Shown: positions 7,251 to 52,830 of the stretch, piece by piece
How positions within the stretch are numbered: position 1 is the stretch's first letter
How the letters are laid out: the number at the start of each line of letters is the position of its first letter
Source: Callorhinchus milii
Taxonomy: Eukaryota
NCBI RefSeq assembly: GCF_018977255.1
Contig: NW_024704742.1
Location: 134,666,001 to 134,730,000, forward strand
Reading direction: 5' to 3'
DNA length: 64,000 nt
Program-made: the position numbers and the translations under genes
The notes under the pieces: generated by a model
Seen by the model: the letters and a program-made list of their open reading frames with translations, nothing else
Told to the model about the DNA's origin: nothing
Database searches by the model: none

Positions 7251-7406
7251 GGTAAAGGTAGTCATTTCAGAACCGAGACAAGAAACATCCAAAACAGTGC
7301 ATTGTAGGACAATCAGGCCAAACCTGCAAACCTCCTACAATCAGGCCAAACCTCTTCAACACCCACTTTTGGCATTCAGATGTTAACAATTCCCTTTTTG
7401 TATAAA

Positions 7407-7412
7407 TTTAAT
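7407..7412 (-). terminator. Candidate poly(A) signal ATTAAA of NARS1 copy A
   Basis: ATTAAA on the minus strand ~250 bp after the stop, at the position homologous to the copy B signal. Confidence 0.55.
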
Positions 7413-7664
7413 GGACACAGCATATACAAAAAGACACTCAACAAAAAGAAAATCAGTGCACTTAATGCTTTTTGGGGTCATTTAATATAGATTAGGAGTT
7501 GGTGAAACAATAATTGCTTGAAGGTTACATGTTAAGGAAACAGGCAAGAAAAGCATTTTTTAATGACATATGCAATGTTTAATCAGCTGTGGTTTGTTTC
7601 TAAGTGGTTTCCTTTTGCTCAGATTTCTTTCAATCTTGCAGAACATTGAGAATTAGTTGAGGCA

Positions 7665-10600: not shown

Positions 10601-13600
10601 CACATAATTGAAGGTGCTCTCACTGCAATTCTACTGCATTAGACTATGTGAATGGCTCCATCCATCATGTCATAAGTGGGGCTCAAAATTGAAACAGTCT
10701 TCATAATAATATGACAATCCTTGCATTTGATATAGCACCTGATCACGTCTTTGAGACGTCTCAAAGCTCTTCACATAATATACTGTAAAGTGAATTGACT
10801 GTATATTTTGTGTGCGATTCGCAGCAGCCAATTGCGTACAGCAGTGTCCACAAACAGTCATGGATTGAAGTGACCACTTTATTATTGTTTTATTTTTTGA
10901 AGGAATTACTATCCCTGGAAAAGCGATCCGCCAATCGACTAACAACCAGGTTCCTACTTACTCCTAGATAAACAGAATTGTGTGGAGTAAGGAAACTTGT
11001 CAATGATTCGCTCTGCCAGGAATCAAAACCAGGTCTCTTGCTTGCAAGGCGAGTGCTCTATCCACTGAGGTACAGGACTGCATAAACTTATAAACAGAGT
11101 TTTTGAGAGACATGGCCCAGAGCTAGTGAAAACAAAACTAAGTTTGTAAATAACGCATTTACAGGAAAACAAGAATATTGTGCTCTGAATAACAAACCAC
11201 CTTCTTTGGCAAAGTAATAATAATAGTCTTTGTATTTGAAATAGCATCTTGTCACATTATTGAGACATCTCAAAGCACTTTGTAGAATTGATTGTAAAGT
11301 GGATTGACTGGGTGTATTCTGTAGGTGAAACCCGTCAGCCAATTTGTGCACCATCGTGGATTGAGTGACCAAATTCCTTTTTGGTGGGATTATTAACCCC
11401 GGAAAGGAAAACGCACAGCAATGTCCCACAAACAGTCGTAGATTGAAAATGACCAATTTATTATTGTTTGTTGGTTTTGGAGGGATTATTATTAGGCTCT
11501 GTGTGGAGTAAGGTAACTTGCCCACGAGGTTTCGCCCTCTGCCGGGAATTGAACTCAGGTCTCTCACTTGCAAAGCGAGTGCTCTAACCACTGAGCTACA
11601 GGACTCCATGATAAACACTTTAACAATGGCGGACACTGAGCCGGGGAAAGAGGGGAGATGAGCGTAGGTACGATCAAAAAGGAAGGTCTTCGTGTGAGAT
11701 CTGAAGATGGGTAAGGAGGGAGCAAAGTGGGGATTGAGGCTGGGAGTTTTGAGGTTTAGTGGCTGAAAACACGGCTGCTGATGTAGTGGAAGGGCTCGAG
11801 GGATGTAAAGATGGCCCAATTCATTGTGTTTGTGTGTGTGGTGGTGGATGGGGGGAGGGGCTGAGGGTGTGAGAGATTAGCAACACTTTCTATATAATAC
11901 TCGTTTTCCTATAAATGCCCTATTTCTTATCTTAGTTTCATTTTCACTTAGCCGTTTGGTCTCTTGGCAAAACTTCTGTTAATAAGTTCTTTTTATCCTT
12001 CAGGTCAAGTACTCTCTATGTCTCACTGGAATCTTGTGCTCTGAATAACAAACCACCTTCTTTGACAAAGTAATAATAATAGTCTTTGTATTCGAAATAG
12101 CATCTCGTCACATTATTGAGACATCTCAAAGCACTTTGTAGAATTGATTGTAAAGTGGATTGACTGGTTGTATTCTGTGGGCGAAACCCGTCAGCTAATT
12201 TGTGCACCATCGTGGATTGAGTAACCAAATTCTTTTTTTGTGGGATTATTAACCCCGGAAAGCGATTTGCCAAATGACTACCAACCGTTTTCCAACTTAC
12301 TGTTAGGTAAACAAGTTCTAGGCGTGTGGAGAAACTTGCCTATGGTTTTGTCCCGCCTGGAAATTGAACACGGGTCCTAACCGGGCTAACCATAATTCAC
12401 TGCTGTTTTCGTGTTCATGAACCAATAGTTTAATAGCAACACAATAGAGCATGACAGTTAAGGAATGTAAATGCTCACAAAAAAGAAAGGTTACTGACTC
12501 TGCAAGGTGTCTACGTGTCCGAGACTGTTCAGCACGATAGGACTGGGCGATGCAGAAAACATCCCCAAGGGAAGGCAGGCAGGTCTCCAAGTACAGTTGA
12601 GAAGACTGGGTCAGAAAGGCTTCCTCTCCAAAATAGTTCATTTTGAAGAGAGTGGAACCTCCCTCCACCTGTGTCTGCACCAATGTCGGTGGAGTGATCT
12701 GGAGGATTAAAAATACATCAACCAAAATGCTCAGTTGCTTCAACATGTAGAAATTAAACGCTTCTCCTCTCACGTACTGTCATAGTTGGGTGTTCACTTG
12801 TGGCCAGGCAATGTGAACCCAAAGAGCAACAACAACAAAATGGATGGGTTAGAAAGATGAATTTCTAACCCTTGTGGAACCCTTCTAATCTTCTTGTAAG
12901 TAAGGACTTTTAACTCTCAGTCCAGTCTGACACCCCCAATACAGTGCTGAGGGTGTGCTGCATTGTTGGAGGTGCCGTCCTTCAGACGAAACAAACATCT
13001 GCCCCCCCCCCCCCTTGCACACTTAGCACAAAGAAGACGGCAAGTAACGTACCTCAAAGTAGCCGCGGTCAAAGTAGTGGTCCCTAAAGCACTGTATCAG
13101 TGCGGATCGTACTTTGAAAATCTTGGACATGTTCTCCCCTCTCAGCATCATGTGACGATTGTTGAGCTGCACGTCTACGTCAGATTCCTCGTTCAGCAAA
13201 TTGTCTGCACCTCCAGGTGGGGCCAGGCCGATCAGCTCCCAGTAATCACAGATCAATTCGTGCCCACCAGGAGCCTGAGGAAAGAGTCAAGGCACCACTT
13301 TAAAGCAGAAGTGGATGCATAGAAAGGAACATCTTTCCTCATCAAAGCCCTCACTGGTTTTCATTTGCCCTTAAGTTAACTACATTAATAATACACTCAG
13401 TCTCCCTTTCATTCACACAGAAAGTGCATAGTTGAAAAAAACTGCACGTTGTCAATATTTGAAAAGACATCAATGCTTAAAAAGTTGCTGCCAATTTATT
13501 TTTTGAAGATACTAGAAACCACGGTGCACTTATATAGCGCCCTCCATGCAGGGTAGTGTCTCAGAGCGCTTAACAGTGGCGGAGCCCGACTCCAAACCTG

Positions 13601-16600
13601 GGGGACGGGGGAGGTGGCATAAGCACGGTCGAACAGGAAAAGTTTTCAAATAGGACTTGAAAGAGAGGAGATTCTTCATTCAAGAGAAGATTGATTCTGG
13701 GCTTGGGATAAAACACAGCTCAGTCAGAGGTTGGAATAGGAGCAAGATGTGCATGAGACAAATTATCCGGGTTGTTCTTTTTCCTACACTTTTCTTATGT
13801 GTTCATCATATCCTTACCATCTTCCCTTCTGGTACAATCTTCAAGGTACCATAAAGTGCAACGGAGCTCTCTGTGGACAGGACCAGTGCATTGTAACATT
13901 GACACTGCAAGAGGAAAAGCAGAATTGTTTTACGTTCTGATGAATTGCATTTAAAACACACGTACTCTTTACCGTAGTTTGTGGGTAAATACAAACACAA
14001 CAGAAAACGCACCCAACTCTGGTTGTACATATCAAATTAATTAGCGATCCCAAAATGTTTTTATATTATTGCAAGCAATGATTGTATTGCTAAAGTGAAC
14101 AAAAAAAATCACACGATTAAGGCAGTTGTTGAACACCTTGAGTGTTGAACACTTGTATTGGTAATGTGCACCATACTTTATACAATTTAATGAATTTTGC
14201 ATTTAATGAATTGTAATAAAGAAAACATAAGGCTCTTTACCAGCTCATCACTGAGTACACACTGCAGGAATCCTGTGCCATCTCGCAGAATCACAAACAT
14301 CAAGTTCTTTCCTGTAAAGACAAACGTTACAGTCATCACCTTTCCTAATAGCAAACATTTGTCTTACTGTTTAAAGTGTAATACAACAACAATCCTTGGA
14401 TTAATGCAGAACACTCATCTCCATGCTTCAGGGCATCCAAACCACACAAGGTGGATACCATGGGGTGGGATAGCTGGCCTGGGAGAAAATTACTTTCTTT
14501 TTCCAAAGAGATGATAGCAAATCATAACTTGTAACACTATTACCAACATTTTAAATAACTGACTCAACAGTATTTTCGATATTTTAAAAGAGAAAAGAAT
14601 TTATAAAGTATGTACAGCACGGAAACAAACCACTTGGCTCAAACAACCCATTCCGGTATTCATACTCCCAACCAATCTTCCCCCATTCCTTATTCTCTCT
14701 CACACCTTTCGATTCCCCCCTCCCTCATGTCACGGTCTAGCGTCCTCTGAAGGCTTCTACAATAGTTGATTCAACCACCGCTTCAGATGGCAAGTTCCAA
14801 AATCCCACTATCCTCTGCGTTCTTTTTTAGATCCCCTAATCTCTCTTATACTTGTGTCCCCTAGTTACAGATCCCCAACCAGGAGACATAGCCTATTTAT
14901 GTTCAACTCATTAAACCATTTTATAATTGTAAACACCTCTATCAGGTCCTCTCTTAAATATCTCCTCTAGCGAATAAAGGCCTAACCTATCCAGGCTATC
15001 CTGATAGCAGTAACCTGCCAGCCCTTGTAAGATCCTCATAAACATAATACATTAAACATAATGTGGTCAAACCAAGGTTTTATATAAATTCAACATCACC
15101 TCCTTACTTTTATATTCTAGCCCTCTGGATATGAAGCCAGACCCCATTGGCCCTTGTACTAGCCTTATCTACCTGTGGAGCTACATTTAGAGATTTTGGG
15201 ATCTGAATCTCCAGATCTCTTTGCTGCTTTACTCCTCCTAGGTTCCTATCACCTAGACTCACCCACCCCCCCACCACACACCCACATCCCACACCCATTA
15301 CCTACATGTGTAGAAAGAAACAGAAAACAATTACAAGAACTGAGTAATGTTTCCACCCTAGAAATAATCTCAAAGGCAGAAATCGCACCTTGTCTGCGTA
15401 ATCTATGAATCCAGCCAAAGATCTTCACTCGCTCCCCTCGATGAGCTTCAGTGTCTCGTATTTTCACCTGCAGGAAAGAAATTCAAAGTTTATCCGCATC
15501 CAACACATTCCAGATACAGGCACATTTCTGTCCCAAACACAAATCCACAAAGCAGTATAAACAGTGTTACTTTGAGGGAAAAGCCACAAAAGCTTAATAG
15601 AAGTGTAAACGCAGATTTCCAGGGCAGCACACAATTTATTAGCAAGCTCAGAAGAGGGAAAGGGAATAGACAAGTTGAGATCCCATTACTTTTAATGAGA
15701 GCAGTGAATACATGGAATGGATTCTAAGGGAGGCAGTGGAGGCTGACTGCATCAGCAAATTTAATAGATAATTATGTGACACAGAGATTGATTTAAGAGA
15801 CAAGAGATAAGAGCAGTGCACATTTCTTTTAAAGAACTCTTGAGATCACCAGATGAACCTCAGTTTCTATTCCACTCCTTTGTAATCCTATTGCTGTGAG
15901 CAATTATTGTCTTTATACTTACTAACTGAACGTGTATTTTTGTGCCAATGAGCGATTGGTGATGTGTCAGGTCTTTCCCACAAATATCAAGTCCTGCTAA
16001 GGGCTCAGACACCTTCAATGTGCACAGAACCACATCAGTTCATTCACTGATGGATAAGAAAGTAGAAACATGTACCGAACCCATGTCTAAGTCACAGTCC
16101 TGAAAGGATTATCTCAATATTTGAGTTAAAAGTTAATTTTTTTCCCCACAAGGCCCACCAAACTTCAAAGTCATCAGGCTTCAACCAGACTGTACAGGGC
16201 TCTTGTCTGGAAAGGATTGCTCACCAGTTGAAGAGGACTGATGCACTGTTACTTTTCAAATATTACTTACCAACTTTGGCTCTGGAAGACTGGGGTCCAG
16301 TTTAATGACTACCTTTCTGGCCTCTTCCAGATTCTTCTCTCGGCGTAACGCATCTTCAATCTGTTGAGAGTGATATTCGTTTTAAAATAATAAAGGTTGA
16401 ATTTGGCATCCTATAAACCATGTGTTGATAGGAGCACCCACTCGCCTGTACCACAAGATCTTTGGTTCCTGAGGGCACGGCAGCTCTGATGATGCAGTGG
16501 TTAGAGCTGCAACTTACAAACAGGAACTTTCTGCTTCAAACCACAGTTCTTGTTGAGTTTGGTGTTCTCAGATCTTGTTGCATGGGGTAATAATAATAGT

Positions 16601-19600
16601 TCTTGCATTTGATATAGCACCTGATCACGTCATTGAAATATTTCATAGCGTTTCACAGAATATATTGTAAAGTGGAGTGACTGTGCATTTTGTGGGCAAA
16701 ACGTGGCAGCCAATTGACTAAATTAGTTAAATTAAATTGGGGTGGCTAAATTAGGCTCTACCTCCCTAACTCACAGGGATAAGAAGGTTAAAATAGGCCA
16801 GGTTACCCATCCTAGTCTCTCTTTGGAACCCACCACTGTAGTGTACGTATGGCAGCCGTGTGGGGAGAGTCAGGCTTAGATGTGACACCCTCTACAATCG
16901 AGGCAGGATTGACAGTTTCACCCCAATCGCAACCTCTGTGGGTTCAGAGAATGCAATTAGTATTGAATTACATACAGCAATGTGCCTGGACTGTGCCCTC
17001 TAGGAATTAGTCTGCCCAAAATAATTTTGCTTACAATACATAAATCAGGGGTCGGTTTCAATATTTATTGTCCCCACACCTTATTCAAAGGTTGATTGTC
17101 AGCCTGTGCTGACTGAGGCAGGAATTTTGAGTGCTACACGCCTCTATCCTTAAACTACTTCCCTCTCTCTACCCCTTTGTCACTCCCACTTCCCATCAGT
17201 TTTTAAGTCCAGCCTTAAAACCTACTCCTTCTCCACAAGGCCCACGATCACACAGAAGCCTTCTAACACACGTTAGGAACTGACACTGAAATGCTCTTGG
17301 AACTAGACAGCAGGAATAGAGAAAAAAACCTTCATATTCTGATCATTAGTAAAGGAAACAGAGTATGTCAGAGCGGACTACTAATATGTCAAAAGTGTAT
17401 GAATGACTACTCGCACACTTTTCTGTTAACACTCACCTCTTTTTGGGCTGCTGTTTCATTCTTCACCTGTCCTCGTTGACAGAGCTTCTTGAGATTTTTC
17501 AGCTGTGTGTTAGATATAACATCCCAGCGCTGAAAGATAGATTATTGCACTATTAAATGTGGCCTTGCAATATGTGAACTTACTGTGAATGTGATCGTCT
17601 CACTGGAAGTAGAAGGGTTAACTTCACTCTATTATGGCAGTAACAAGGTGATTATCTTAACCCCCTATTTCTTCCTTGCTCTCTCAATTCCCTCCCATAC
17701 TTGCAATGAGCCAAGTTTGTACGTCTGTACTGATGAAGCATTCTCACCAGGACATTGATAGAAGCAGCGACACGTGCTTCATTGCAAAAGTCAATGTATT
17801 TGTTAACTATTGGCAGGTTTACCTAAAATGCAACCTTGCTACATCGACTGACATCAATCCCCTTCCATAACTCCAGATTCCCAACTAATGTGTGTTTGTA
17901 CAGTTTGATCTATCGCAGCGTTGTCCAATGCGTTAGTCACACGTAGCGATTGGGAATCCAGAGGTGGTGAAATTGTATTTTGATCAGTAAATAAAAAATG
18001 AGTAACAGCCATCGTCATTGGACATGTGATCGCAAAACTCGTATTCACACGACATATGTATGTGTACTTTGATGTTTTGGTATGCTTGTTGGTAAAATGG
18101 TAAGCAACATGTGAATGTTTTATGATTGTTGTGTATGCTTTACTTCCTCGGTTATTGCTTGTTGGTTATCGGCTAAAACAGTATGTAACACGATTGAAAA
18201 CGCCGGATCTAGTGCGGCTCACAAAAGAAAATAGATGTTTAAGTAAAAATACATGTAAACATACATGCAGTGCATTTTTTCCTTTATGTTTCATTGTGTA
18301 AGTAAGGCATTTTCTACTAACATTAGTGCATGTGGCTAAAACAGAGTTGTCCTTGGCACACCCGTGGCATTAGTTCTTTGCATGTTCATACGCATGGTTT
18401 GGAAAAGCTAAAGCAAAAGGAAACACACTGTACCTCGCCTTCCTTTTGGGAATCCACGTAAATAGTAGGGAATGGCTCCTTCCCAAATGCAGTCAGTGCC
18501 TAAAAGACAGAAACGAAATGAATGCAAGGGTCACGAGAACATTTAAAATGAAACAGAAGCTCTTCCTCTTTGAAAACACAAAGCAGAATTAATTTTTGTT
18601 TTTTTACCTGAAGAGCTGTCTTGAACGGTTTCTCTTTCGTTCCTGTGCCTGCTGAATCATCCCCTTCACGATCAGACACGTACAGTTCATCTACAAAATA
18701 TTAATTCTCAATCTTTTAGTTGTCGAGAGGAAAAGCAGCAGCAGTTATTGTGTCCATCAAAAGACCTTTTTGGGGGAACAATATTAACAACAACAACAAC
18801 AACAAGATTCCATTTATAAAGCGCCTTTCACGTCAGGAGGACGTCCCAAGGCGCTGCACAGTTGGGTCAGGACCCGAGCAGGGGGGAAATGCTCAGGGTG
18901 AGGGGAGGGAAGGGAGGGAGCGAGGAGGGGGAAATGGTCAGGGTGAGGGGAGGGAAGGGAGGGAGCAAGGAGGGGGGGAAATGGTCAGGGTGAGGGGAGG
19001 GAAGGGAGGGAGCGAGGAGGGGGAAGAGAGTCGAGAGGGGAGCTGAAGGCTCGGTCAAAGAGAAAGGTTTTGAGACCGGCCTTGAAGGAGGAAAGGGAGG
19101 AAGCGGCGAAGGCACTGGGGGAATGGAGTTCCAGAGCCTGGGGGCTGAGAGGCTGAAGGTCCGACCACCGATGGTAGGGCGATTGGGGCGGGGGACGTGG
19201 AGCAGACCGGAGCCGGAGGAACGGAGGGTACGGGCAGGTAAGTAGGGGGATAGTAGGTCAGAGAGGTAGGAGGGAGCAAGGCCGTGATGGCCTTATAGGT
19301 GAGGATGAGGATCTTGAAATCAATCCTCTGGGGGATGGGGAGCCAGTGGAGGCGAGTGAGGGTGGGAGTGATGTGGTTGCGGTGCCTGGTGTGGGACAGT
19401 ACACGAGCTGCAGAGTTCTGAGTGACCTGCAGCTTGTAGAGGGAGTGGCGGGAAGGCCGGCGAGGAGAGAGTTCCCATAGTCCAGCCTTGAGGTGACAAA
19501 CGCGTGGACCAGGGTTTTAGCAGCGTGAGGGGTGCTTACCAGTGCTTCTTTACTCTGCCCCCCAGCTCTGTAAATTACCTACAAAGCAACCAACCTCAGT

Positions 19601-21196
19601 GGACGATATCTTCCCCTATAAATAACACTTCAACTGCCCTCTCCCTCCCATAAAACAGCTACTGAATTTCTTTCTCTGTATCACTGATGTCTAACTCCCA
19701 TCCCTGATATTCAAGAGAACAGTCTGCTCCTTTCAATCACTGGGAAAGTGAAAGAGGGAATGCCAAATCCCTAATAACAAAAGGGGAGAGTGATACCACC
19801 AATAACCAGGGGGCTGAAATGCGAGACGAAATGTAAATCCCCAAACCTATTCACCCAGGGGTATAAGTATTGCCCTGGCCCCGATAAGCAAGCGGGTAAA
19901 GGGTAACACCCAATAGCTAAGGGGCTAAACTGGGGCAGGGGAAGATGTAAAACAACAAAAAATTATATGTATACCAACACCTTTCATATCGGAAAGGGTT
20001 TGCAATCAAGAGGGGTGGAGGGTGGGGTTAAAATCCCTGGCAACAAAAACGATGATGGGAAAATGGAGACTGTAAACAACAACTTGCATTTATATAGTGC
20101 CCTTCACGTGAATTAGCATCCTGAAAAGCTTAACAGTGGCAGAGCCTCACATCAAGCCAAGCTAAAGGAGGAGGTGGCCGGAAGCACAATCGAAAAAAGG
20201 TCATCAGTTGTGATCTAAAAGAGCGAAAGAAGAGAGCAAGGCGGAGGGATTGAGGGTTACGCGTTGGGTACGCTTTGTTACTCCACAAGCCAGTTTACCT
20301 CGCAGTAAGTAGGAACCCAATTGCTAGTCGATCGCAAGTCTCTTATCTCTTTCTGCCCCACCTATCTCTCTCTCCCCCTCTGATCTCTCTCTTTCTCCCT
20401 CCAAAAAGGAAAAAAATAATTTGGTCACTTAATCCACAACTGTTTGTGGGACACTGCTGTGCACAATTGGTTGCCATGTTTCGCCCCAAAAATGCAGTCA
20501 ATGCACTTCACAGTATATTCTGTGAAGCGCTTTGCGATGTGTCAAAGACGTGATAAGCACCTTATCACGTCATTGAGACATCTCAAAGCGCTTCACAGGA
20601 TATACTGTAAAGTGAATCGACTGTATATTTTTATTATTATTATTTGTGGGCGAAACGCGGCAGCCAATTGGGCACAGCAGAGTCCCACAAACAGTCGTGG
20701 ATAGAAGTGACCAATTTATTTTTATTTTTTTGAAGGAATCATTAGACCACAGAAAAACAATCTATCAATCGACTGACAACCGGGTTCCTGTTTACTGCTG
20801 GGTAAACAGAGGCGTGTGGAGTAAGGAAACTTGCCTAACATTTCAATCTGCCGGGAATCGAACCCTCTGACTTGCGAGGCGAGTTCTCTAACCACTGAGC
20901 TACAAGACTCACAGATAGAGAGGCAGTGTGAGAACCTAATAATATTATCACTAATATTAATAATTACTTCTATGAATAATTATCTTAACAATATAAAAGT
21001 GTTACTATGAATAATTACTAGTAACGATAACCTTAATAACACTTTTAACAGTAGTACTGCGAATAGTTATTACTATTAATAATTATCTTAACGACAATAT
21101 TAACAGTATTACTAGCAATAATAATAATAAGAATAGACCTGATCACTTACCCAGTGACAGCTGAGCCGTCTGTTTGCTCACGTCCCTGCCAGGCAT
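7665..21196 (-). CDS. NARS1: Cytosolic asparaginyl-tRNA synthetase, copy A (inverted duplicate), 15 coding exons, 560 aa, intact ORF
   Basis: Minus-strand exons 21196-21151 ([15 protein letters not shown]), 18690-18608, 18499-18434, 17529-17437, 16360-16271, 15467-15389, 14311-14241, 13904-13818, 13274-13053, 12698-12499, 10585-10450, 10271-10158, 8956-8825, 8064-7933, 7796-7665 (…[10 protein letters not shown]). All introns are GT-AG, and the exons sum to 1683 nt with no stops or frameshifts. Class IIb motifs are present ([34 protein letters not shown]), as is the ELYVSD N-terminal extension of cytosolic NARS1. Confidence 0.95.
10705..11080 (-). mobile_element. tRNA-derived SINE, long form (NARS1 copy A intron 10)
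   Basis: Reverse-complement head, linker, core and tail. Confidence 0.75.
11410..11608 (-). mobile_element. Young SINE, head and partial core (3'-truncated)
   Basis: Near-identical to the short-form SINE head. Confidence 0.75.
14610..15260 (-). mobile_element. CR1-like LINE fragment in NARS1 copy A intron 6
   Basis: ORF remnant [27 protein letters not shown] resembles the CR1 ORF2 C-terminus; absent from the 82-bp copy B intron. Confidence 0.65.
18787..19535 (-). mobile_element. 5'-truncated L2 LINE, specific to NARS1 copy A intron 1; contains a ~45-bp purine-rich tandem triplication (18880-19030)
   Basis: Same L2 family as 37512-38326; (CAA)n tail on the plus strand. The homologous copy B site at ~26875 is empty. 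Confidence 0.88.
20557..20910 (-). mobile_element. tRNA-derived SINE, long form (copy A intron 1), abutting a plus-strand SINE remnant at ~20270-20555
   Basis: Head …gagctacaagactc, linker and core, recognised in both orientations. Confidence 0.72.
20935..21135. repeat. AT-rich low-complexity repeat at the start of copy A intron 1
   Basis: Degenerate aataattac/tattaat units. Confidence 0.7.
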
Positions 21197-21516
21197 GACT
21201 CTGGGCTGTTTGTGCTGCTGACAGGCGGACGGTGGTGGAGGAGGAGAGGAACACAGAACACACTGAGGCTCGAGAGGAAATATAATCTGTGCATAAATGT
21301 GGTTCAAACCCAATATATAAACCCAATGAGAGAGACACGGGCCCTCCTACAATCACAACCCCTCCCACACCGGCTCCACCCGCCAAACACCCCCTCATCT
21401 CCCCCCACCCCACAGCAGGTCAGGCAGCATCTATGGAGAGAGCAAAGCGAGTTGACATTTCGGGTCAATGACAATTTGTCGGAACAATTCGCCGCCCACT
21501 GCTCCCACTTTCACTT

Positions 21517-21525
21517 GTTGCATCA
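21517..21525 (-). promoter_or_regulatory. AARE/CARE (ATF4-C/EBP composite) element TGATGCAAC upstream of NARS1 copy A
   Basis: Minus strand reads ggcTGATGCAAC, sharing 11 identical bases (ggctgatgcaa) with the copy B element; ~320 bp upstream of the copy A ATG. Confidence 0.6.
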
Positions 21526-22884
21526 GCCTCCCCCAAAAAATCAGAGAGCATTCTGGAGACCCGCGAATGGAAAAGGGACTTTCCGTTTACAGCACAGCTT
21601 GCAGATTGAGGAAGGAAAAGGGAAGGAAGAAAACAATACGTGGAAATCTAATGCTGTGATTATCAGGGCCAGATTAAGGGATGTGGAGGGGGGGGGTCTA
21701 AAACAGATCACAATTGCGTACTCTTTGAACTGCACGGGCAAAATATGCAACAATACCGTTCTAAAATACTTCCTTCCATTGCTTGTAAACATACACAATA
21801 TAAAATTACGTTTGTATAGCGTCTTACACGTTTGGAGGGCATCCCAAGGCGCAGGTCAGGGATTTGGACCCGAACGGGGGGTGGGTGGGTGGGGGTTGGA
21901 TTAGGGAGCGCGGAGAGCAGGACGGTGGCCAAAGGCGTGGTCGAAGAGCTCATCCCGCTCCTCGTGCGGAGGAGGGGGGGGGGGGGGGCGGTTGGTGTTT
22001 GTGGGCGCGGAGCTGGCGAGGGGAGGCTCGGGTTGTGGTTGTGGGAGGGGCCGTGTCTCTCTCATTGGGTTTAAATTTTAGGTTTGAGCAACATTTATAG
22101 AGATATACCTACATACTAACTTTGTGTGACTGATGTACAAGAACATCCAAATCCCTCTGAACACCAACACTACCTAGTCTTTCCCCCTCTAGAAAATAAT
22201 CTGTTTTCTATGTTTACAACCTAGGTGAAAACTTCACACTTCCTACAATATACTCCATATGCCACCTTCTTGCCCACTCTCCTAGTCTGTCTACTTCCCT
22301 TTGCATTCTTCGTGTGTCATCCTCATCGCTTACTCTCCCACCTATCTTCGTACCGTGGCTTGTCTAATCGTTGCTCATTCTTCTATTATTGGGGGTCATC
22401 TTACATCCTATCTGCTGTCTCTAGGGCCTGGGTAGCCCCCTTATAAGGCAGTGACCAAAATTATATGCAGTCCTTCAGTTGAGGCCTAATGTATATAGCT
22501 TGAGTAAGACGTCTGGTGATCCCAACTCTACTGATTTAGCAATATAGCTAGAATTCTGTTGTTTATTGCTGCTTCAAGCTCATCCTAAACACCTCTCTCT
22601 GTCAGATCCAACCAAGGACCTGTCTACATCTTCTTCAGGATGTCACTTTTTGGAAAGAGAAGGGAGTTTCTCCCTGTATCCTGGCCAACAATCTATCGCA
22701 TTAGTAAGCAGTCTTTCACCTCATAGCTGTTGTCTGACCTTGCTAAGGGTAAATGGCTGCTGCATTTGTCTATTAACAATTCCTTTGCTTCACAGTAATT
22801 TTTGTGAAACGCTTTTGAGATGCTTTAATGCAACATTATAAAATACGGGTTCTTCTTCTTCTTCTTCTTCTTCTTCTGCCTTCC

Positions 22885-23380
22885 CCCACCTCCGCAACAT
22901 CTCCCGGCTCTGCCACTGTCTCACACCCTCAGGCCGCTGAGACTCTCATTCGAGCATTCATAACATCCAGGCTTATGCAAACTCCTTGCTTGTCGGCCAC
23001 CCCAACTTCTCCCTCCACAGGCTGCAGATCACCCAGAACTCTGCAGCCCGTGTCCTCTCCCGCGCCAGGCTCCGCGACCCTATCGCCCCCGTCCTCACTC
23101 GACTCCACTGGCTTCCCATCACACAGAGGATACAGTTCCAAGATCCTGGTCCTCACCTTCCAAGCCCTCCATTGCCTCGCACCCCCTTATCTCTGAGACC
23201 TCCTAAGCCCCTACTATCCTGGTCGCTCCCTCTGCTCAGCGCCTCAACATTGGCGGGCGGGACTTCTGCCACTCCGCCCAAACCCTCTGGAACTCCATCC
23301 CGCAGTCCCTCCGCCCTCGCCCCGGCCTCCTTCAAGACCCGTCTTGACGACCCTCTTCTTCGACCGTGCTTTCGATCTCC
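22885..23380 (+). mobile_element. L2 LINE fragment in the inter-NARS1 spacer
   Basis: [53 protein letters not shown]. Confidence 0.85.
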
Positions 23381-23399
23381 CCTCCTCCTCCTCCCCACC

Positions 23400-23795
23400 C
23401 CTGCCCCCAAGCCTGAGCCCCCGAACCCCAGCCCGAACCCCCCAGCCCCAACCGCCCACTCCCAGTCAGAGCACCCGAGCCCCCCAGCCCCAACCGCCCA
23501 GACCCCCAGCCTGAGCCCCGAGCCCCCCCAGCCCCCAGCCAGAGCCCCCAGCCTGAGCGCCCCAGCCCGAGCCCCCCCAGCCCAGAGCCCCCCAGCCTGA
23601 GCGCCCGAGCGCCCCAGACCCCCAGCCCGAGTCCCCAGCCCCCAGCCCGAGACCCCAGCCTGAGACCCCCAGCCCGAGACCCCAGCCTGAGACCCCCAGC
23701 CTGAGACCCCCTGCCCCCCGCCCCAGCCCGAGCGTCCCAGCCCCCAGCCCCCCCGGCCCCAGCCCCCCCAGCCCCCCCAGCCCCCCGGCCCCAGC
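23400..23795. repeat. GC-rich minisatellite of CCCCAGCC(C/T)GAG-like units
   Basis: Degenerate tandem units visible directly, upstream of the copy B CpG island. Confidence 0.85.
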
Positions 23796-23799
23796 TCGG

Positions 23800-24330
23800 G
23801 TCCACGGCGCTGACTGTCCGGCGTGAAAGGCCCTTTACGAAATATAACCAAACATGAGGGACAATCATGACTGCAGTCTCCCCCTCCCCTCCCCTCCGCG
23901 CCCCCCACCCCGCGGGGCCACGTGTCCGGGCCGCCCTCCTCGTGGCTGATGCAATCAGCGGGGCGGCTCTTGCTGAGCCAACGCAACTTGATCATCGGGT
24001 GCGCCGGGACTGCGCAGGCGCTCGGGGGGCGCGAGAGGGGCGGGGCCAGGTGCCCGTCACTCCACCCCACCCCTCGTCCAATAGGCGGCGAGGACGTGGC
24101 GGTTTCCACCGCCGCCCCGCCCCCCTCCGGGCCAGCAGGTTAGGTTGCGGGCAGAGCCGGCGAGGCTGAGATTGTGGGCGGGGCCGTCTCTCCCTCTCCC
24201 TCTCTCTCCAGTGCTTTACCTTTCACCCCCTCCTCCCTCTCCCCTCTCACTCTATCGCAGCTCAAACAGCCCAGAGGAGTCATGTCGGCCGGGGACGCGA
24301 GCGAGCAGACGGCGCAGCTGTCACTGGGTA
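23800..24330 (+). promoter_or_regulatory. CpG-island promoter of NARS1 copy B: E-box CACGTG (23919-23924), AARE/CARE TGATGCAAT (23947-23955), GC boxes, CCAAT (24078-24082)
   Basis: Very GC/CpG-rich segment directly upstream of and including exon 1; motifs read directly from the sequence. Confidence 0.75.
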
Positions 24331-27300
24331 AGAGGCCTCCACATCTCCCTCCCTCTGAATCTCCCTCCCCCCCCACATCTCCCTCCCCCCCCCACATCTC
24401 CCTCCCCCCCTCTGTATCTCCCTCCCCCCTCATCTCCCTCCCCCCCTCTGTATCTCCCTCCCTACTCTGTATCTCCCCCCCCCCCCCCACTGTATCTCCC
24501 TCCCCCCACATCTCCCTTCCACCCACTGTATCTCCCCCCCCCCACATCTCCCTTCCCCCCATATCTCCCTCCCCCCCACATCTCCCTCCCCCCACTGTAT
24601 CTCCCTCCCCCCACTGTATCTCCCTTACCCCCATATCTCCCTCCCCCCACTGTATCTCCCTCCCTTCCCCCCCATATCTCCCACCCCATATCTCCCTCCC
24701 CCCACTGTATCTCCACCCCATATCTCCCTCCCTCTGTATCTCCCTCCCTTCCTCCCCATATTTCCATCCCTCTATCTCCCTTCCCCCCCATATCTCCCTC
24801 CCTCTGTATCTCCCTCCCTTCCCCCCATATTTCCCCCCCTCCCCCATATCTCCCTCCCTTCCCCCCATATTTCCCTCCCTCCCCATATCTCCCCCTCCCT
24901 CTGTATCTCCTTCCCCCCCTTCCCCCTCATATCTCCCTGCCTCCCAGTATCTTCCTCCCCCTGTATCTCCCTATCTCCTTCCCTCTCTTCCTGTATGTCC
25001 CTCCCTCTCCCCACTCGTATCTCTCTTCCCCTTATCTCTTGTCCCCCATCTATCTGCTTTTATCTCTCTGTCTCCCCCCCCCCCCCCCGCCTCCCCTCTT
25101 TCTATTTTAAAAAAATTATTTGGTCACTCAATCCACGACTGTTTGTGGGACACAATTGGCTGCAGCGTTTTGCCCACAAAATACACAGAAAATCACTTTA
25201 CGGTATATTCTGTGAAGCGCTTTGAAACTGCTCAACAACGTGAAAAGGTGTTAAATCAAATGCAAAGATTATTATTATTTCTTTTTCTCTATCTTTCAAC
25301 TTGCCTCCCCTCTCTCCCACCCTCTGGCTCTATATCTCTTTCTGTCTCGCCCTCCAGCTCAACAAAAAATATAAAAATAATATCAAATGCGAGGATTATT
25401 ATTCTCTCTTTCCCTCCCTCTCTAGCACATTCCCTCCCTACCGTTCTCTCACATTCCCTCCCTCTTTCTATCTCTGGACATGCTTCACATTCCCTCCCTC
25501 TCTCTCTCAGGCAGAGGGAGGATCCTCTATTCATCATCATCATCATCATCCCGTAGGCACAGGAAGTGCAGGAGCATTGCCCTCTCCTTATCTTCCCCTT
25601 CCCCTGTTTGCTCCCCCTGGTTATAGGGGCTGGGCTGTTACCCTTTACCCCCTGGGTTATTAGGTCTAGGGTTTTACATTCCCTCCCCCATTTCAGCCCT
25701 TTGGTTATTGGTGTTGTGGTATTACTTTCCCCCCTTGTTATTAGGGGTGTGGCGTTCCCTCTTTCCCATCCCCAGTGATTGGGAGGAGCGGACTGGTTTC
25801 TTGGGTATCAGGAGTTGGAGGTAGACACCAGGGACATAGGAAGAGATTCATTTGGCATTTTATGGGAGTGTTATTTCCTCATCTGCATGCTCCCTCTGGG
25901 CGATGTCATCCGCAGACACGGGGTAAACTTCCGCATGTTTGCGGATGACTCACAAATCTACTTGGTCTCCTCCAGCATCGACTTCAGGCCCGGATGAGCG
26001 TAAACTTCCTGTCACTGAATGTGGACAAAGTAGAGCCATACACTTTGTCTCCCGTCAATGTCTTCACACCTGCGTATCTAAACTCCTCAACCTCCCTGGG
26101 CTCTCCCTCAGACTCACCAAACCAGTGTGCAACCTAGGCATCTGGTTCGACCTCCAGCTGTCCTTCCTCTCCCACATCTGGTCCCTGACCAGCATGGCCT
26201 TCCTCCACCTCTGCCACATTGCCCATCTCCGACCATACCTTACCCCAAATGCAGCCAAAACCCTCGTGCATGGGTTTGTCGCCTCCTGCCTGGATTATTC
26301 AAAAGCGCTCCTCGCCAGTCTCCCCAGCTCCACTATTCCAAAAAAATCCAGCTCATTCAGAACTCTCCTGCCCACATACTTACCCGGACCAAACACCAGT
26401 TGTGGCCAGACTCACTGGGCTCCCCATCACCGGACGGATTGACTTCAAGATCCTCACCCTCGCGTTCAAATCCATTCATTCTCTGGCACCTCTCTACCTC
26501 TCCAACCTTCTCACTCCCTAGTCTGCTCGACTGGCATCAGCCTCGTAATTGTCCCTCTCACCCTCCGCTCCCCCATTGAAGATTGCGCTTTCGGCCACTA
26601 TGCCCCGAAACTATGGAATACTCCCTTAATCCCTCCGCCTTGTCCCCCTCTCTACCTCCTTTTTCAAGTGTCACCTTTACGACCGTGCTTACGGTCACCT
26701 TCCCCCCGCTCCTCCCTCCGGCTCAAAATCAGGCTCTGCTACTGTTAAGCGCTCTGAGACGCTACCTGCGTGGAGGATGCTTGTTGTTATTTATGGGGGA
26801 AGAGATAGTCCACTGAGGGTTGATTTCTTTGTAGGTAATTTATGGAGCTAGGGAGCAGAGTAAAGAAGCACTGGTTATAATTGTTCCTCAAAAAGGGCTT
26901 TTGATGGACATAATAACTGCTGCTGCTTTTCCTCTTGACAACTAAAAGAGTGAGAATTAATATTTTGTAGATGAACTGTACGTGTCTGATCGTGAAGGGG
27001 ATGATTCAGCAGGCACAGGAACGAAAGAGAAACCATTCAAGACAGCTCTTCGGGTAAAAAAAAATTCATTCTCTTTGTGTTCTCAAAGTTGAAGCTCTTC
27101 TGTTTCATTTTAAACGTTCTCGTGAGCCTTGCATTCATTTAGTTTTTGTCTTTTAGGCACTGACTGCATATGGGAAGGAGCCATTCCCTACTATTTATGT
27201 AGATTCCCAAAAGGAAGGCGAGGTACAGTGTGTTTCCTTTTGCTTCAGCTTTCCCAAACCATCCGTATGAACATGCAAAGAACTAACGCGAGATCGGTAT

Positions 27301-30300
27301 TGTCCTATAGAAATTGCTGAACAGCCACGGGTGTGCCTAGGGCAACACCGTTTTAGCCACATGCACTAATGTTAGTAGAAAATGCCCTACATACACTTAC
27401 ATAATACAGCTAAATGTACTTCATGTATGTTTATATTTATGTTTACTTAACCCACATTTATTTTTCTTTCGTGAGACATGGCAGATCCAGTGTTTTCAAA
27501 CGTGTTACACACTGTTTTAACCGATAACCAACAAGCAGTAACCAAGGAAGTAAAGCACACGCAATCATGAACCATTCACCCACTTTACTTTTCGTCTTAC
27601 CATTTTACCAACAAACGTACAAAAACATCAAAGAATACATATAGATAGATATTTGGGGATGACACATTTTCAGGGCTAAATGGAGAGAGTGGTGGAGAGC
27701 ACTTTCACAGAGCCAGCACGGACACGATGGGCTGAATGGCGTCTTTCTGTGCCGTATAATTCTACGATTCTATGATATGCCCTATGTATACGAGTTTTGC
27801 GATCACATGTTCAATGACTCATTTTTTATTTACTGGTCACAAGTACAATTTCCCCATCTCTGGATTCCCAATTCGTTAGGTGTGACTATGGCTAACGTAT
27901 TGGACAACACTGCAATAGATCAAACTGTGCAAATGCAGAACAATTAGAAATATTGTTAGACTGGCGTTATGAAAGAGGATTGACGTAGCAAGGTTGCATT
28001 TTAGGCAAACCTGCCGACAGTTACCAATACATTATCTTTTGCAATGAAGTTTGTGTCGCTGCCTATATTCATGTGGAGTCCTGTAGCTCAGTGGTTAGAG
28101 CACTCGCTTTGCAAGCGAGAGACCTGAGTTCAATTCCAGGCAGAGGGCGAAACCTGGCAAGTTTCCTTACTCCACACAGAGCCTAATAATAATCCCTCCA
28201 AAACCAAAAACAATAATAAATTGGTCATTTTCAATCTACGACTGTTTGTGGGACATTGCTGTGCGCAATTGGCTGCCGCGTTCGCCCACAAATATACAGT
28301 CAATTCAGGGTGTTCTGTGAAGCGCTTTGGGACGCCCTCCCGACGTGAAAAGCGCTATATCAAATACAACGATTATTATTATTATTGCTGTGAATGCTTC
28401 GTCTGAACAGAACTGGCTTATTGACAGTTTGGGTGGTGCGAGACAAGGAATTAAAAGGGAACAAGGAAGAAATAGGGGATTAAGATAATCACCTTGTCAT
28501 TGCAGTAATAAATTGAAGTTAACTCTTTTACTTCCAGTGAAATGATCACGTTCACAGGAAGTTCACATATTGCAAGGCCACATTCAATAATTCAATAATC
28601 TATCTTTCAGCGCTGGGATGTTATATCTAACACACAGCTGAAAAATGTCAAGAAGCTCTGGCAACGAGGACAGGTGAAGAATGAAGCAGCAGCCCAAAAG
28701 GAGGTGAGTGTTAACAGAAAACTGCGAGTCGCCATTCATACCCCTAATGTTTGACATACTAGCTCGTCTGTTCTTTCCATTACTGATGTTCAGAATATAA
28801 AGGTTTTCTCCTGTTCCCACCTGTCTCTCCTGAAGTATTGCCTTGCTACGGTACAGTTCCAAGAGCATTTAAGTGTCAGTTCCTAATGTGTGTTAGCTAA
28901 GGCTTCTGTGTGTTAGTGGGCCTTGTGGAGAGGAGGCTGGATTTAAAGACTGATGGGGAGTGGGAGTGACAAAGAGGCAGAAAGAAGTAGTTTAAGTAGT
29001 TAAGAGGAGTTTAGCACTCAAAATTCCTACTCCAGTTAATATGCACAGGCTGACAATCAACCTTTGATTAAGGTGCGGGGACAATAAATATTTAAACGAC
29101 CCCTGCTTTATGTATGTCAGCAAAATTATTTCAGGCAGACTAGTTCCTGGAGGGTGCAGTCCAGGCACATTGCTGTATGTAATTCGATACTAATTGCATT
29201 CTCTGAACACACAGAGATTGAGGTTGGGGTGAAACTGTCAGTCCTGCCTCGATTGTATAGGATGTCGCATCTAAGCTTGACTCTCCCCACACGGCTGCCA
29301 CACATACACTACAGTGGTGGGTTCCAAAGAGAGACCAGTACGGGTAACCTGGCCTATTTTAACCTTCTTATCCCTGGGAGTTAGGGAGTTAAAGCATAAT
29401 TTAGCCAATTTAGTTTAATTGAAATAATTTAGTCAATTGACTGCCACATTTAACCCACAAAATACACAGTCACTCCACTTTACAATATATTCTGTGAAAC
29501 GCTATGAAATATTTCAATGACGTGATCAGGTGCTACATCAAATGCAAGAACTATTATTATTATTATTACCCCATGCAACAAGATCTGAGAACAGCAAACT
29601 CAACAAGAACTGTGGTTTGAAGCACAAAGTTCCTGGTTGTAAGTTGCAGCTCTAACCACTGCATCATCAGAGCTGCCGTGCCCTCAGGAACCAAAGATCT
29701 TGTGGTACAGGCGAGTGGGTGCTCCTATCAACACATGGTTTATAGGATGCCAAATTCAACCTTTATTATTTTAAAACGAATATCACTCTCAACAGATTGA
29801 AGATGCGTTACGCCGAGAGAAGAATCTGGAAGAGGCCAGAAAGGTAGTCATTAAACTGGACCCCAGTCTTCCAGAGCCAAAGTTGGTAAGTAATATTTGA
29901 AAAGTAACAGAGCATCAGTCCTCTTCAACTGGTAAGCAATCCATTCCAGACAAGAGCCCTGTACAGTCTGGTTGAAGTCTCTTGACTTTGAAGTTTGGTG
30001 GGCCTTGTGGGGAAAAAAATTAACTTTTAACTCAAATATTGAGATAATCCTTTCAGGACTGCGACTTAGACATGGGTTCGGTAAACGTTTCTACTTTCTT
30101 ATCCATCAGTGAATGAACTGATGTGGTTCTGTGCACATTGAAGGTGTCTGAGCCCTTAGCAGGACTTGATATTTGTGGGAAAGACCTGACACATCACCAA
30201 TCGCTCATTGGCACAAAAATGCATGTTCAGTTAGTAAGTATAAAGACAATAATTGCTCACAGCAATAGGATTGCACAGGAGTGGAATAGAAACTGAGGTT

Positions 30301-33300
30301 CATCTGGTGATCTCAAGAGTTCTTTAAAAGAAATGTGCACTGCTCTTATCTCTTGTCTCTTAAATCAATCTCTGTGTCACATAATTATCTATTGAATTTG
30401 CTGATGCAGTCAGCCTCCACTGCCTCCCTTAGAATCCATTCCATGTATTCACTGCTCTCATAAAAAGTAATGGGATCTCAACTTGTCTATTCCCTTTCCC
30501 TCTTCTGAGCTTGCCAATAAATTGTGTGCTGCCCTGGAAATCTGCGTTTACACTTCTATTAAGCTTTTGTGGCTTTTCCCTCAAAGTAACACTGTTTATA
30601 CTGCTTTGAGGATTTGTGTTTGCGACAGAACTGTGCCTGTATCTGGAATGTGTTGGATGCGGATAAACCTTGAATTTCTTTTCTGCAGGTGAAAATACGA
30701 GACACTGAAGCTCATCGAGGGCAGCGAGTGAAGATCTTTGGCTGGATTCATAGATTACGCAGACAAGGTGCGATTTCTGCCTTTGAGATTATTGCCTAGA
30801 ACCTTTCTAGGGTGGAAACATTACTCAGTTTCTGTAATTGTCTTTGCAGGAAAGAACTTGATGTTTGTGGTTCTGCGAGATGGCACAGGATTCCTGCAGT
30901 GTGTGTTCAGTGATAAATTGGTACAGAAGCCTATGTTTTCCTCCTTATTAAGATTCATTAAATAATATTGCTTAAAGTGTGGTGGTTATTACCAATGCAG
31001 GTCTTCATAACTCCTGCCTTAACCTTTAGGAAATAACATAATGGGATAAAATACATAAGTAGCTTGGGACATATCCGGAATGCGAACTAGATGGATCTTG
31101 GTCTTTTTTCATCTAGCATTTCTTATGTTCTTAACCGTGTTCACAGACTGTTCACTTTAGCAACACAATCATTGCTTGCAATAATATAAATATTTTGGGA
31201 TCACTAATTAATTTGAAATGTACCTCCTTACTTGGCTGTGTTTTATGTTGTGTTTGTATTCCAAACAATTTAGCCGCAAACCATGGTAAGTGTTTGTTTT
31301 TAAATGTTATTCATCAGAACGTAAAACAATTCTGCTTTTCCTCTTGCAGTGTCAATGTTACAATGCACTGGTCCTGTCCACAGAGAGCTCCGTTGCACTT
31401 TATGGTACCTTGAAGATTGTACCAGAAGGGAAGATGGTAAGGATATGATGAACACATAAGAAAAGTGTAGGAAAAAGAACAACCCGGATAATTTGTCTCA
31501 TGCACATCTTGCTCCTATTCCAACCTCTGACTGAGCTGTGTTTTATCCCAAGCCCAGAATCAATCTTCTCTTGAATGAAGAATCTCCTCTCTTTCAAGTC
31601 CCATTTGAAAACTTTTCCTGTTCGACCGTGCTTATGCCACCTCCCCCGTCCCCCAGGTTTGGAGTCGAGCTCCGCCACTGTTAAGCGCTCAGAGACACTA
31701 CCCTGCATGGAGGGCACTATATAAGTGCACCGTTGTTTCTAGTATCTTCAAAAAATAAATTGGCAGCAACTTTTTAAGCATTGATGTCTTTTCAAATATT
31801 GACAACGTGCAGTTTTTTTCAACTATGCACTTTCTGTGTGAATGAAAGGGAGACTGAGTATTATTAATGTAGTTAACTTAAGGGCAAATGAAAACCAGTG
31901 AGGGCTTCTGATGAGGAAAGATGTTCCTTTCTATGCATCCACTTCTGCTTTAATGTGGTGCCTTGACTCTTTCCTCAGGCTCCTGGTGGGCACGAATTGA
32001 TCTGTGATTACTGGGAGCTGATCGGCCTGGCCCCACCTGGAGGTGCAGACAATTTGCTGAACGAGGAATCTGACGTAGACGTGCAGCTCAACAATCGTCA
32101 CATGATGCTGAGAGGGGAGAACATGTCCAAGATTTTCAAAGTGCGCTCCGCACTGATACAATGCTTTAGGGACCACTACTTTGACCGCGGCTACTTTGAG
32201 GTACGTTACTTGCCGTCTTCTTTGTGCCTCGTGAGCAAGAGGTTGACAGTAAATCTGGTGCAGCAACTTCTGAATAATCTTTCAACTGTGCAACTGTGTG
32301 TGTGGGGGGGTGGGCAGATGTTTGTCTTGTCTGAAGGACGGCACCTCCAACAATGCAGCACACCCCCAGCACTGTATTGGTGGTGTCAGACTGGACTGAG
32401 AGTTAAAAGTCCTTACTTACAAGAAGATTAGAAGGGTTCCACAAGGGTTAGAAATTAATCTTTCTAACCCATCCATTTTGTTGTTGTTGCTCTTTGGGTT
32501 CACATTGCCTGGCCACAAGTGAACACCCAACTATGACAGTACGTGAGAGGAGAAGTGTTTAATTTCTACATGTTGAAGCAACTGAGCATTTTGGTTGATG
32601 TATTTTTAATCCTCCAGATCACTCCCCCGACATTGGTGCAGACACAGGTGGAGGGAGGTTCCACTCTCTTCAAAATGAACTATTTTGGTGAGGAAGCCTT
32701 TCTGACCCAGTCTTCTCAACTGTACTTGGAGACCTGCCTGCCTTCCCTTGGGGATGTTTTCTGCATCGCCCAGTCCTATCGTGCTGAACAGTCTCGGACA
32801 CGCAGACACCTTGCAGAGTCAGTAACCTTTCTTTTTGTGAGCATTTACATTCCTTAACTGTCATGCTCTATCGTCTTGCTATTAAACTATTGGTTCATGA
32901 ACACTAAAAACAGCAGTGAATTATGCAGGAACAATTTTAAGTTAACTCGGCAGCTCAAAATTTAAGGCTGTTCAATTGGTTTAAAAAACAGCTATTGACT
33001 TTATTCAATTAAGTTCACACTTAATTCACACTTTATTCAATTAAGTCCACACAGGTTTTTTGATCGTTTCGAATCATTTTCGAATTGCACATCTTGTTTT
33101 GTAGTCTATATACAGTAAACTCCTGATAACATCACTCCAAGGTAAAAGAGTCCCATAGTGTAGTGGTTAGGACCCGTGTTCAATTCCCGGGCGGGACAAA
33201 ACCATAGGCAAGTTTCTCCACACGCCTAGCACTTGTTTACCTAACAGTAAGTTGGAAACCAGTTAGTCATTTGGCAAATCGCTTTCCGGGGGTAATATTC

Positions 33301-38860: not shown

Positions 38861-38894
<34 letters not shown>

Positions 38895-40466: not shown

Positions 40467-40704
40467 TGCCTCAACTAATTCTCAATGTTCTGCAAGATTG
40501 AAGGAAATCTGAGCACCACTTAGAAACAAACCACAGCTGATTAAACATTGCATGTCATTTAAAAAATGTTTGCTTACCTGTTTCCTTAACATGTAACCTA
40601 CAAGCAATTATTGTATACCAACTCCTAATCCACTGCTGTATTAAATGACCCCAAAGAGGATCGTCTGCAAAGAGTTTTCTTTTTCTTCAGTGTCTTTTTG
40701 GTTC

Positions 40705-40710
40705 ATTAAA
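40705..40710 (+). terminator. Candidate poly(A) signal ATTAAA of NARS1 copy B
   Basis: cATTAAAtgtatacaaaaag matches the copy A context cATTAAAtttatacaaaaag. Confidence 0.55.
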
Positions 40711-40739
40711 TGTATACAAAAAGAGAATGGTTAACTCTA

Positions 40740-51950: not shown

Positions 51951-52279
51951 CGTTTAAATGAATTACGTAATAATTAAGAACAAAACCGCACCAAACTTTT
52001 TTTTGAATCATAGCCCACATAATCCAACAGAAAAAAAAAACCCCGCCCAACCTGACCACATTATCCTTCGTGACAGGTCCCACACCAAATACGATGTGGT
52101 TTTTTTCCCTCTTTTTTTCCCTCTTTATCATTACTCTATTATTATTTTCTCTCAATTCAATTGACTTTACAGTTTATTCCGTGAAGCGCTTGGAGACGTC
52201 GAGAAGACGTGAAAAGCGCTAATACCCAATGCAAGGGTTATTATCATTACGGTCAACTCAACAGAACACAGGTGGGAAT

Positions 52280-52830
52280 TGTGAATGAGAAGGTGCGGCG
52301 TGGCGGGGGCGGGCGGGGTGGGGGTGGGGGGGGGAGAGAAGAGAGAGACCAGGAGAAGGGTTGGGGGGAGAGCGAGCGAGCGAGCGAGAAAGACAGAACG
52401 TGGAGAGAGAGAAAAAAAAGAAAAAGAAAGAAAGGAAGGAGACGGATTGGGCGAAGGGAGGGATGGAGAGGGAGGGAATGGGGCAGTTTGCAGCAGAGCC
52501 TTGAGATTGGCGGACAGGAGGCTCAGTGGTGGGGGCGGTGGGGGCTGGTGATGGAGTGATGATGGAGGGAGGGGGGCGGGGGGGGGCGTGGTGGTGGGTG
52601 GGGGGGGTCGTGGTGGTGGGGGTGGGGGGGGATGGTGAGGGCCAGGAAAGGGGCGGGACCTTTTGTCGGGGCGGAACGGAATGCAAGGGGAGCCAACAGC
52701 AGGGACCGGGGGGACGGGTTAGAGGAGGGGACACACACTCACTCACCCACACACCCACACACACAGAGCAGCGCAGGTGGTGTCATGGCGCTGAGGGCGG
52801 CCGCTCGGCTGCTGTTCGGTGAGTCTCTGT
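52280..52830 (+). promoter_or_regulatory. GC-rich FECH promoter with Sp1-type GC boxes and inverted CCAAT boxes
   Basis: G-rich, CpG-containing region upstream of the ATG at 52785; GGGCGGG at ~52651 and GGGGCGG at ~52668; ATTGG at ~52446 and ~52506. Confidence 0.55.

Follow-up and report, generated by a model that had tools for sequence, protein, structure and literature searches.

Two head-to-head NARS1 copies in Callorhinchus milii each carry an ATF4-type response element, one of them possibly a retained remnant in a rebuilt promoter

[quoted passage not shown] Both lie in a 64-kb stretch (contig NW_024704742.1, positions 134,666,001 to 134,730,000; the window), which carries a large inverted duplication; copy A (7665-21196, minus strand) is the inverted duplicate, and copy B occupies 24282-40466 on the plus strand. 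The reading favoured here, to which we give a probability of roughly 0.55, is that the pair would be served by two independent ATF4-responsive promoters, that of copy A having been rebuilt around a surviving CARE and a GC box.

The copy A element, TGATGCAAC, is located at 21517-21525 on the minus strand, and the copy B element, TGATGCAAT, at 23947-23955 on the plus strand. Both match the CARE consensus TGATGxAAx and both have GGC directly upstream (at 21528-21526 in copy A); the 11-mer GGCTGATGCAA occurs at these two sites only in 64 kb. Measured to the ATG, the distance is 329 bp for copy A (ATG at 21196, minus strand) and 335 bp for copy B (ATG at 24282, plus strand), which, again with the ATG as reference, keeps both elements within the limit of ~3 kb from the start that applies to synthetase genes targeted by ATF4. 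A preliminary description of this DNA had placed one such motif upstream of, and oriented toward, each NARS1 copy at ~320-330 bp from the ATG, and had assigned both to the C/EBP-ATF composite type; presence, orientation and spacing were borne out, and sites of this type are what Atf4 binds at mouse Nars (PMC5175342). Contigs from four sequencing runs were compared over 21120-22840. A contig of an independent 2013 run (X6) spans 21453-21622 with 0 differences, which rules out an assembly error in the motif block. Contigs labelled X1 cover 21120-21429 and 21688-21944 without differences and leave a gap over the CARE, and the bin 21526-21583, which is free of repeat pile-up, had depths of 0, 0, 0 and 7.2 in the four runs, blanks being no proof on their own. 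A run of a second organism (X17), compared at 80% likeness, had depth 0 in four bins (21178-21351 and 21526-21583), which says nothing about conservation; equally without bearing on expression or the transcription start, X5 and X6, both guessed to be RNA, left exon 1 of copy A uncovered.

Motif background and repeat content were judged within the window and the run contigs. The loose pattern TGATGNAAH occurs nine times in the window against 10.9 expected, which is no enrichment, and the strict pattern TGATGCAAY three times against 1.58 expected, a count of at least three being reached by 22 of 100 shuffles. The third strict 9-mer (55936-55944, minus strand) lies beside a CA repeat in the apparent intron 1 of FECH and is probably there by chance. 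What makes the copy A site unusual is its placement near the ATG and not a window-wide enrichment of the motif. In 5000 dinucleotide shuffles of the 600 bp upstream of copy A, a strict site arose in 1.56% and a loose site in 12.5%; within the 211-bp block beyond the repeat described below, a strict site arose in 0.34% of shuffles. Pure chance is an unlikely origin for the copy A site.

In mouse, according to PMC5175342, Atf4 induces 16 of 20 cytosolic synthetase genes via TGATGxAAx sites, and the CAREs of synthetase genes can act as enhancers 0.5-2.4 kb from the transcription start site (TSS). Mouse Nars is Atf4-bound and belongs to the class with a site at the TSS; the CARE listed for it spans +29 to +37 and reads TGATGCAAC in the sense direction, the 9-mer found in the same orientation at copy A, and the CARE listed for mouse Sars, Wars and Hars is TGATGCAAT, identical to that of copy B (PMC5175342). 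The fish pair thus resembles the mouse ATF4-CARE regulon, as presented there, in having a single TGATGxAAx site near the gene start, but differs from mouse Nars in comprising two paralogues in a cartilaginous fish, and in that the sites stand ~330 bp before the ATG, an ATG-based figure, rather than at +29 to +37 from the TSS. By analogy, ATF4 would bind and induce at both sites. In the proposed mechanism, NARS1 would have been duplicated head-to-head long ago to give two separate promoters, of which that of copy B would be the ancestral housekeeping one, with its CpG island and a single CARE; when amino acids are limiting, ATF4 and a C/EBP partner most likely act through this CARE to increase transcription, in the manner of mouse Nars. 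The copy A promoter would have been rebuilt, with ~175 bp of B-type GC-box, NRF1 and CCAAT sequence replaced by a repeat fragment, its CpGs decayed and its core duplicated once more nearby. What would remain of the inherited sequence is a short module (GGC-CARE ... GC box), through which copy A probably still responds to ATF4.

The anatomy of the two promoters is markedly different. Copy B has a promoter CpG island (23601-24400) with a GC content of 71% and a CpG observed/expected ratio (o/e) of 0.73 over 23880-24281, whereas the copy A promoter (21197-21600) has a GC content of 53%, a CpG o/e of 0.50 and no island, the window itself having an o/e of 0.47. A scan with consensus patterns found housekeeping-type motifs at 23919-24181 on the plus strand in copy B, namely an E-box at 23919, GC boxes at 23961, 24038 and 24176, an NRF1-like site at 24012 and a CCAAT box at 24078. 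Upstream of the copy A ATG stand, in order, the leader and core, a 78-bp repeat, 28 bp with a GC box and an IRF-type site, and the CARE. The copy A core promoter and 5' leader (21293-21410, minus strand) is homologous to the core of copy B; its GC box has decayed, and it contains the 48-bp insertion of A type. The GC box directly downstream of the copy A CARE (GGGCGG, 21492-21497, minus strand) is the candidate homologue of that at 23961-23966 in copy B. The 78-bp fragment between CARE and core (21411-21488) belongs to a very high-copy repeat: it matches 719-796 at 74% (E 5e-8), and the bin 21410-21467 has a summed contig depth of 1.6e5 and 5.6e5 in two runs, with loose ends at 21413. Import of the copy A CARE by this adjacent repeat was considered and rejected, the match to 719-796 stopping at 21488, 28 bp before the motif. 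Nor did an nhmmer search find another copy of 21490-21700 within the window (best E 4.3), and the bin 21526-21583 is, as noted above, free of repeat pile-up.

Both gene models comprise 15 coding exons with AG/GT splice sites throughout and encode 560 amino acids. The two open reading frames are intact and have the NARS1 architecture of an N-terminal extension, an OB-fold and class II catalytic domains, with PF20917, PF01336 and PF00152 on both proteins, and with PDB matches. By inspection, the copy A protein is NP_001279862.1 / AFM91006.1 and the copy B protein is XP_042191908.1. With an exon as query, the matches to Callorhinchus milii stood at 100% and those to the next species at 93%, and no further holocephalan-labelled protein was present among the 120 matches listed in each of two protein searches. 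Records for copy A comprise a RefSeq NP_ entry and three AFK/AFM proteins, of which one departs from the genome at 4 residues and another at 2; those for copy B are the XP_ model and a UniProt V9 entry. The AFK/AFM records are presumably full-length complementary DNA (cDNA) clones of PMC3466250. Copy A is very likely transcribed, because these transcript-type records exist. Copy B sits upstream of FECH in the same orientation, as NARS1 does in mammals, and its N-terminus is closer than that of copy A to sharks and rays; for these two reasons copy B is presumed to be the ancestral copy.

The divergence between the copies is patchy, with 41 differences in the coding sequence. The ratio of non-synonymous to synonymous change (pN/pS) is 0.21 (17 non-synonymous and 23 synonymous differences; p=1.6e-6 against neutrality), and the divergence of the introns, taken over those 12 of the 14 in which over 60 bases align, ranges from 1 to 19% (chi2 p=1.5e-52), intron 1 being the highest. 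Because divergence varies so strongly between introns, the data suggest an old inverted duplication that was patchily homogenised by arm-to-arm gene conversion. Near the promoter, divergence is 19% in intron 1, 8 of 46 bases in coding exon 1 (21151-21196 in copy A, minus strand) and 7 of 33 in the core, the last counted by eye; this promoter-proximal value of ~20% is the better clock for the age of the copy A site. The arms (7382-21218 and 24257-40735) contain long tracts at 97-99%, with repeat insertions that differ per arm. Two introns differ in length between the copies, intron 6 with 1,077 bp in copy A (14312-15388) against 82 bp in copy B, and intron 14 with 136 bp in copy A against 741 bp in copy B; these copy-specific insertions could be used as dating markers. 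A pyrimidine-rich tandem array (24343-24972), without a similar-sized counterpart in copy A, opens intron 1 of copy B.

The longest string common to the 211-bp block of copy A and the upstream 340 bp of copy B is the CARE-holding 11-mer (p=0.022, 3000 shuffles). Downstream of the CARE, each copy has a GC box (anchored shuffle, p=0.03), and the 50-bp downstream flanks resemble each other at p=0.047. Under neutrality, 11 unchanged bases would survive with a probability of 0.10 at 19%, 0.04 at 25% and 0.25 at 12% divergence. The homology of the copy A site is local and modest, and suggests that a CARE and GC-box remnant was probably kept in copy A; that the CARE is a selected remnant is plausible, and this reading is favoured, though unproven, because of the shared 11-mer, the GC box and the low neutral survival taken together. 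Several observations weigh against it. The 100-bp flanks upstream of the motif have no A/B homology (p=0.89), the 29 bp of copy A compared with the next 100 bp of copy B gave p=0.69, and the whole-block alignment was not significant (p=0.10). The position of the sites relative to homologous promoter landmarks also differs, the site standing 171 bp from the homologous core landmark in copy A, where the interval contains the 78-bp repeat, and 223 bp in copy B. Furthermore, strict sites also occur away from promoters, as in FECH intron 1, and gene conversion alone can yield a low pN/pS. The preliminary description had called the flanks barely alignable, which is true upstream of the motif but not downstream, where the core and 5' leader align. 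That the two sites stand almost equally far from the ATG is no evidence that the copy A site was retained; it is a coincidence of compensating indels, the downstream 48-bp insertion of copy A happening to make up the difference.

It is also conceivable, though unlikely, that the copy A motif is homologous to that of copy B yet an unselected relic, and that ATF4 plays no part in the expression of copy A, which would be constitutive or tissue-specific. Copy A has lost the CpG island (o/e 0.50 vs 0.73), the NRF1-like site and most GC boxes, it withstood the insertion of a repeat beside the site, and it has 9 of the 16 polarised amino-acid changes, including W82C, all of which would fit a relic; so would the neutral survival values of 10% at a divergence of 0.19 and 25% at 0.12, the more so as the local age is uncertain because intron divergence is very uneven (1-19%). 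A relic sits less easily with the CARE being the longest exact string common to both upstream blocks, and with the single base that distinguishes the two CAREs giving another experimentally used CARE (PMC5175342).

Selective retention of the copy A CARE as an ATF4 site can hold together with a further proposal, which concerns two elements absent from copy B. Directly 3' of the copy A CARE, and abutting it, is a site of IRF element (IRF-E)/BLIMP1 (positive regulatory domain I, PRDI) type, AAGTGAAAGTGGGA (21503-21516, minus strand), and 50 bp upstream of the CARE is a consensus NF-kB site, GGGACTTTCC (21575-21584, plus strand). The IRF-E core AANNGAAA (21507-21516) and the kB consensus are thus both near the start of copy A. 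The first 10 bases of AAGTGAAAGTGGGA occur once in 64 kb, as does AAGTGAAAGT, whose single occurrence abuts the copy A CARE; no GAAANNGAAA, the full interferon-stimulated response element (ISRE) with tandem GAAA cores, was found in 21197-21800. Compared with published sequences, AAGTGAAAGTGGGA matches a human IFNB enhancer probe at 14 of 14 bases (PMC10308904) and the BLIMP1 consensus AAGTGAAAGTGAA at 11 of 13 (PMC2938208), and only partly matches GAAAGTGAAA, which IRF1 prefers (PMC10201418); GGGACTTTCC is the exact sequence of an NF-kB consensus probe (PMC2199015).

These elements raise the prospect, quite unlikely in our view, that copy A was rewired, its CARE forming part of a composite CARE-IRF/BLIMP1-NF-kB module that would make copy A inducible, or repressible by BLIMP1, in response to interferon, inflammatory or lymphocyte signals. 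Such a module would account for the sole AAGTGAAAGT of the window abutting the CARE, with one of the two exact kB consensus sites 50 bp away, but the second exact kB site (35551) lies, by eye, in a repeat tail, so the genome makes this 10-mer without selection. Shuffling brings a kB and an IRF-E consensus together in 0.12% of cases for the block and in 1.2% for the 600 bp, the gap between kB and IRF-type site is 59 bp here vs 286-1091 bp for the other kB-consensus matches of the window, and copy B has 0 of 11 inducible-element patterns; however, the proposal is post hoc, and among 303 real tiles of 211 bp there are 17 with at least 2 of the 11 pattern families. The finding that 0 of 303 tiles hold both a kB and an IRF-type site was not used as a p-value, a tile edge splitting the pair so that the count also misses copy A. 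It should also be noted that the copy A site has a single AANNGAAA core and not a full GAAANNGAAA ISRE, and that it could stem from slippage of the neighbouring AGTG/AGTGGG units.

The two proteins differ at 17 residues, and 14 of the 17 changes lie within residues 1-190 (Fisher p=0.022), a clustering that would also be in line with a rewired copy A. Among 16 polarised changes, 9 are derived in copy A and 7 in copy B. The change W82C of copy A is in exon 4 (17437-17529, minus strand), a residue at which W is found in all 12 outgroup proteins; E175K and L540V are derived changes of copy B, likewise at conserved positions. According to PMC12513289, the N-terminal domain of NARS1 may have non-enzymatic functions. 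In its fullest form, which remains speculative and improbable to the same degree, copy A would be an immune-regulated paralogue that kept its ATF4 site, gained the IRF/BLIMP1 and NF-kB sites and altered its N-terminal domain (W82C etc.) with the catalytic part sheltered by gene conversion, and copy B would be the housekeeping gene.

The arrangement at copy A resembles the human IFNB enhancer, as given in PMC10308904, PMC2938208 and PMC10201418, in that a basic leucine zipper (bZIP)-type site stands beside an IRF site in both. It differs in that copy A has one IRF core where IFNB has tandem cores, that its bZIP site is a CARE rather than an ATF2/c-Jun site, that its kB site stands 50 bp upstream rather than overlapping, and that the gene is a synthetase. 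That ATF4 and interferon can both control one cytosolic synthetase has a precedent in WARS1, which is interferon-gamma-inducible (PMC9166799); unlike the pair described here, WARS1 is a single-copy gene, and an interferon response of NARS1 copy A is a conjecture. Among the open-access papers listed, none had a title on interferon control of NARS.

A very unlikely account derives the copy A motif from non-homologous sequence, in which it would have formed de novo or by chance: the upstream flanks without homology (p=0.89), the whole-block p of 0.10 and the loose consensus in 12.5% of shuffles would allow it, but the strict match is reached in 1.6%, and the two sites have in common the GGC prefix, the orientation and the GC box after the CARE.

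The preliminary description had also proposed that the spacer acts as a divergent ATF4-responsive control region. A bidirectional promoter is a single shared short intergenic promoter with starts within ~1 kb; here the ATGs are 3,086 bp apart, the cores are separate and the only island is at 23601-24400. A head-to-head layout is what this pair has in common with divergent CpG-island promoters, from which it differs by the 3.1-kb gap between ATGs, the separate cores, the one-sided island and the repeat-filled spacer. In mouse, the reach of CAREs extends to 2.4 kb from the TSS (PMC5175342), so cross-talk is physically possible, but a single shared bidirectional region of 3 kb is the least probable of the readings considered, each gene having its own core and CARE, the CpG island being on the copy B side only, and interspersed repeats, a LINE-like (long interspersed nuclear element) fragment and a minisatellite lying in the 2,422 bp between the sites. 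The proposal was dropped in favour of two promoters, because the sites stand 2.4 kb apart over repeat debris.

Other features of the spacer and its surroundings were recorded. An orphan third copy of the A-type core promoter lies at 21974-22098 on the plus strand, 78% over 125 bp to 21293-21410; it is inverted relative to copy A and has the 48-bp insertion of copy A, but no CARE and no exon 1. Together with the copy A core it forms an inverted pair around the block holding the CARE, IRF and kB sites, and a block bracketed in this way could in principle flip. The CpG o/e around the orphan core (21850-22100) is 0.90, richer than in the copy A promoter, and a contig guessed to be RNA (X5) covers 22027-22186 with 11 differences. 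The remaining filler (22106-23786) consists of interspersed repeat fragments, among them the LINE-like fragment (22875-23401) and the GC-rich minisatellite (23406-23786), which stands directly upstream of the copy B promoter and is without a similar-sized counterpart in copy A. An Rfam scan of 20900-24400 gave 3 matches, all far under gathering scores. The repeat at 21411-21488 and 719-796 may be a decayed Penelope-type minimal hammerhead, which it resembles. Penelope-type elements carry minimal hammerheads (PMC6155905). Downstream of copy B, FECH has a CpG-rich promoter (52200-52820, plus strand), a presumed exon 1 near 52786 (by eye) and further exons at 62813-63767, and one GAAANNGAAA match lies in a purine-rich stretch upstream of it.

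The ATF4 logic of NARS1 is known in mammals and both gene models are already public; no paper on this duplication or its promoters was found in the open-access literature. A CARE at NARS1 in a cartilaginous fish extends the known regulon to the oldest jawed-vertebrate lineage, which will not surprise a specialist. The pair is in addition a natural experiment, in which near-identical enzymes of expressed type, one with an intact and one with a rebuilt promoter, reveal which element survives remodelling. If the IRF and NF-kB sites found only at copy A are functional, duplication would here have brought an essential translation enzyme under immune regulation, which would be rare.

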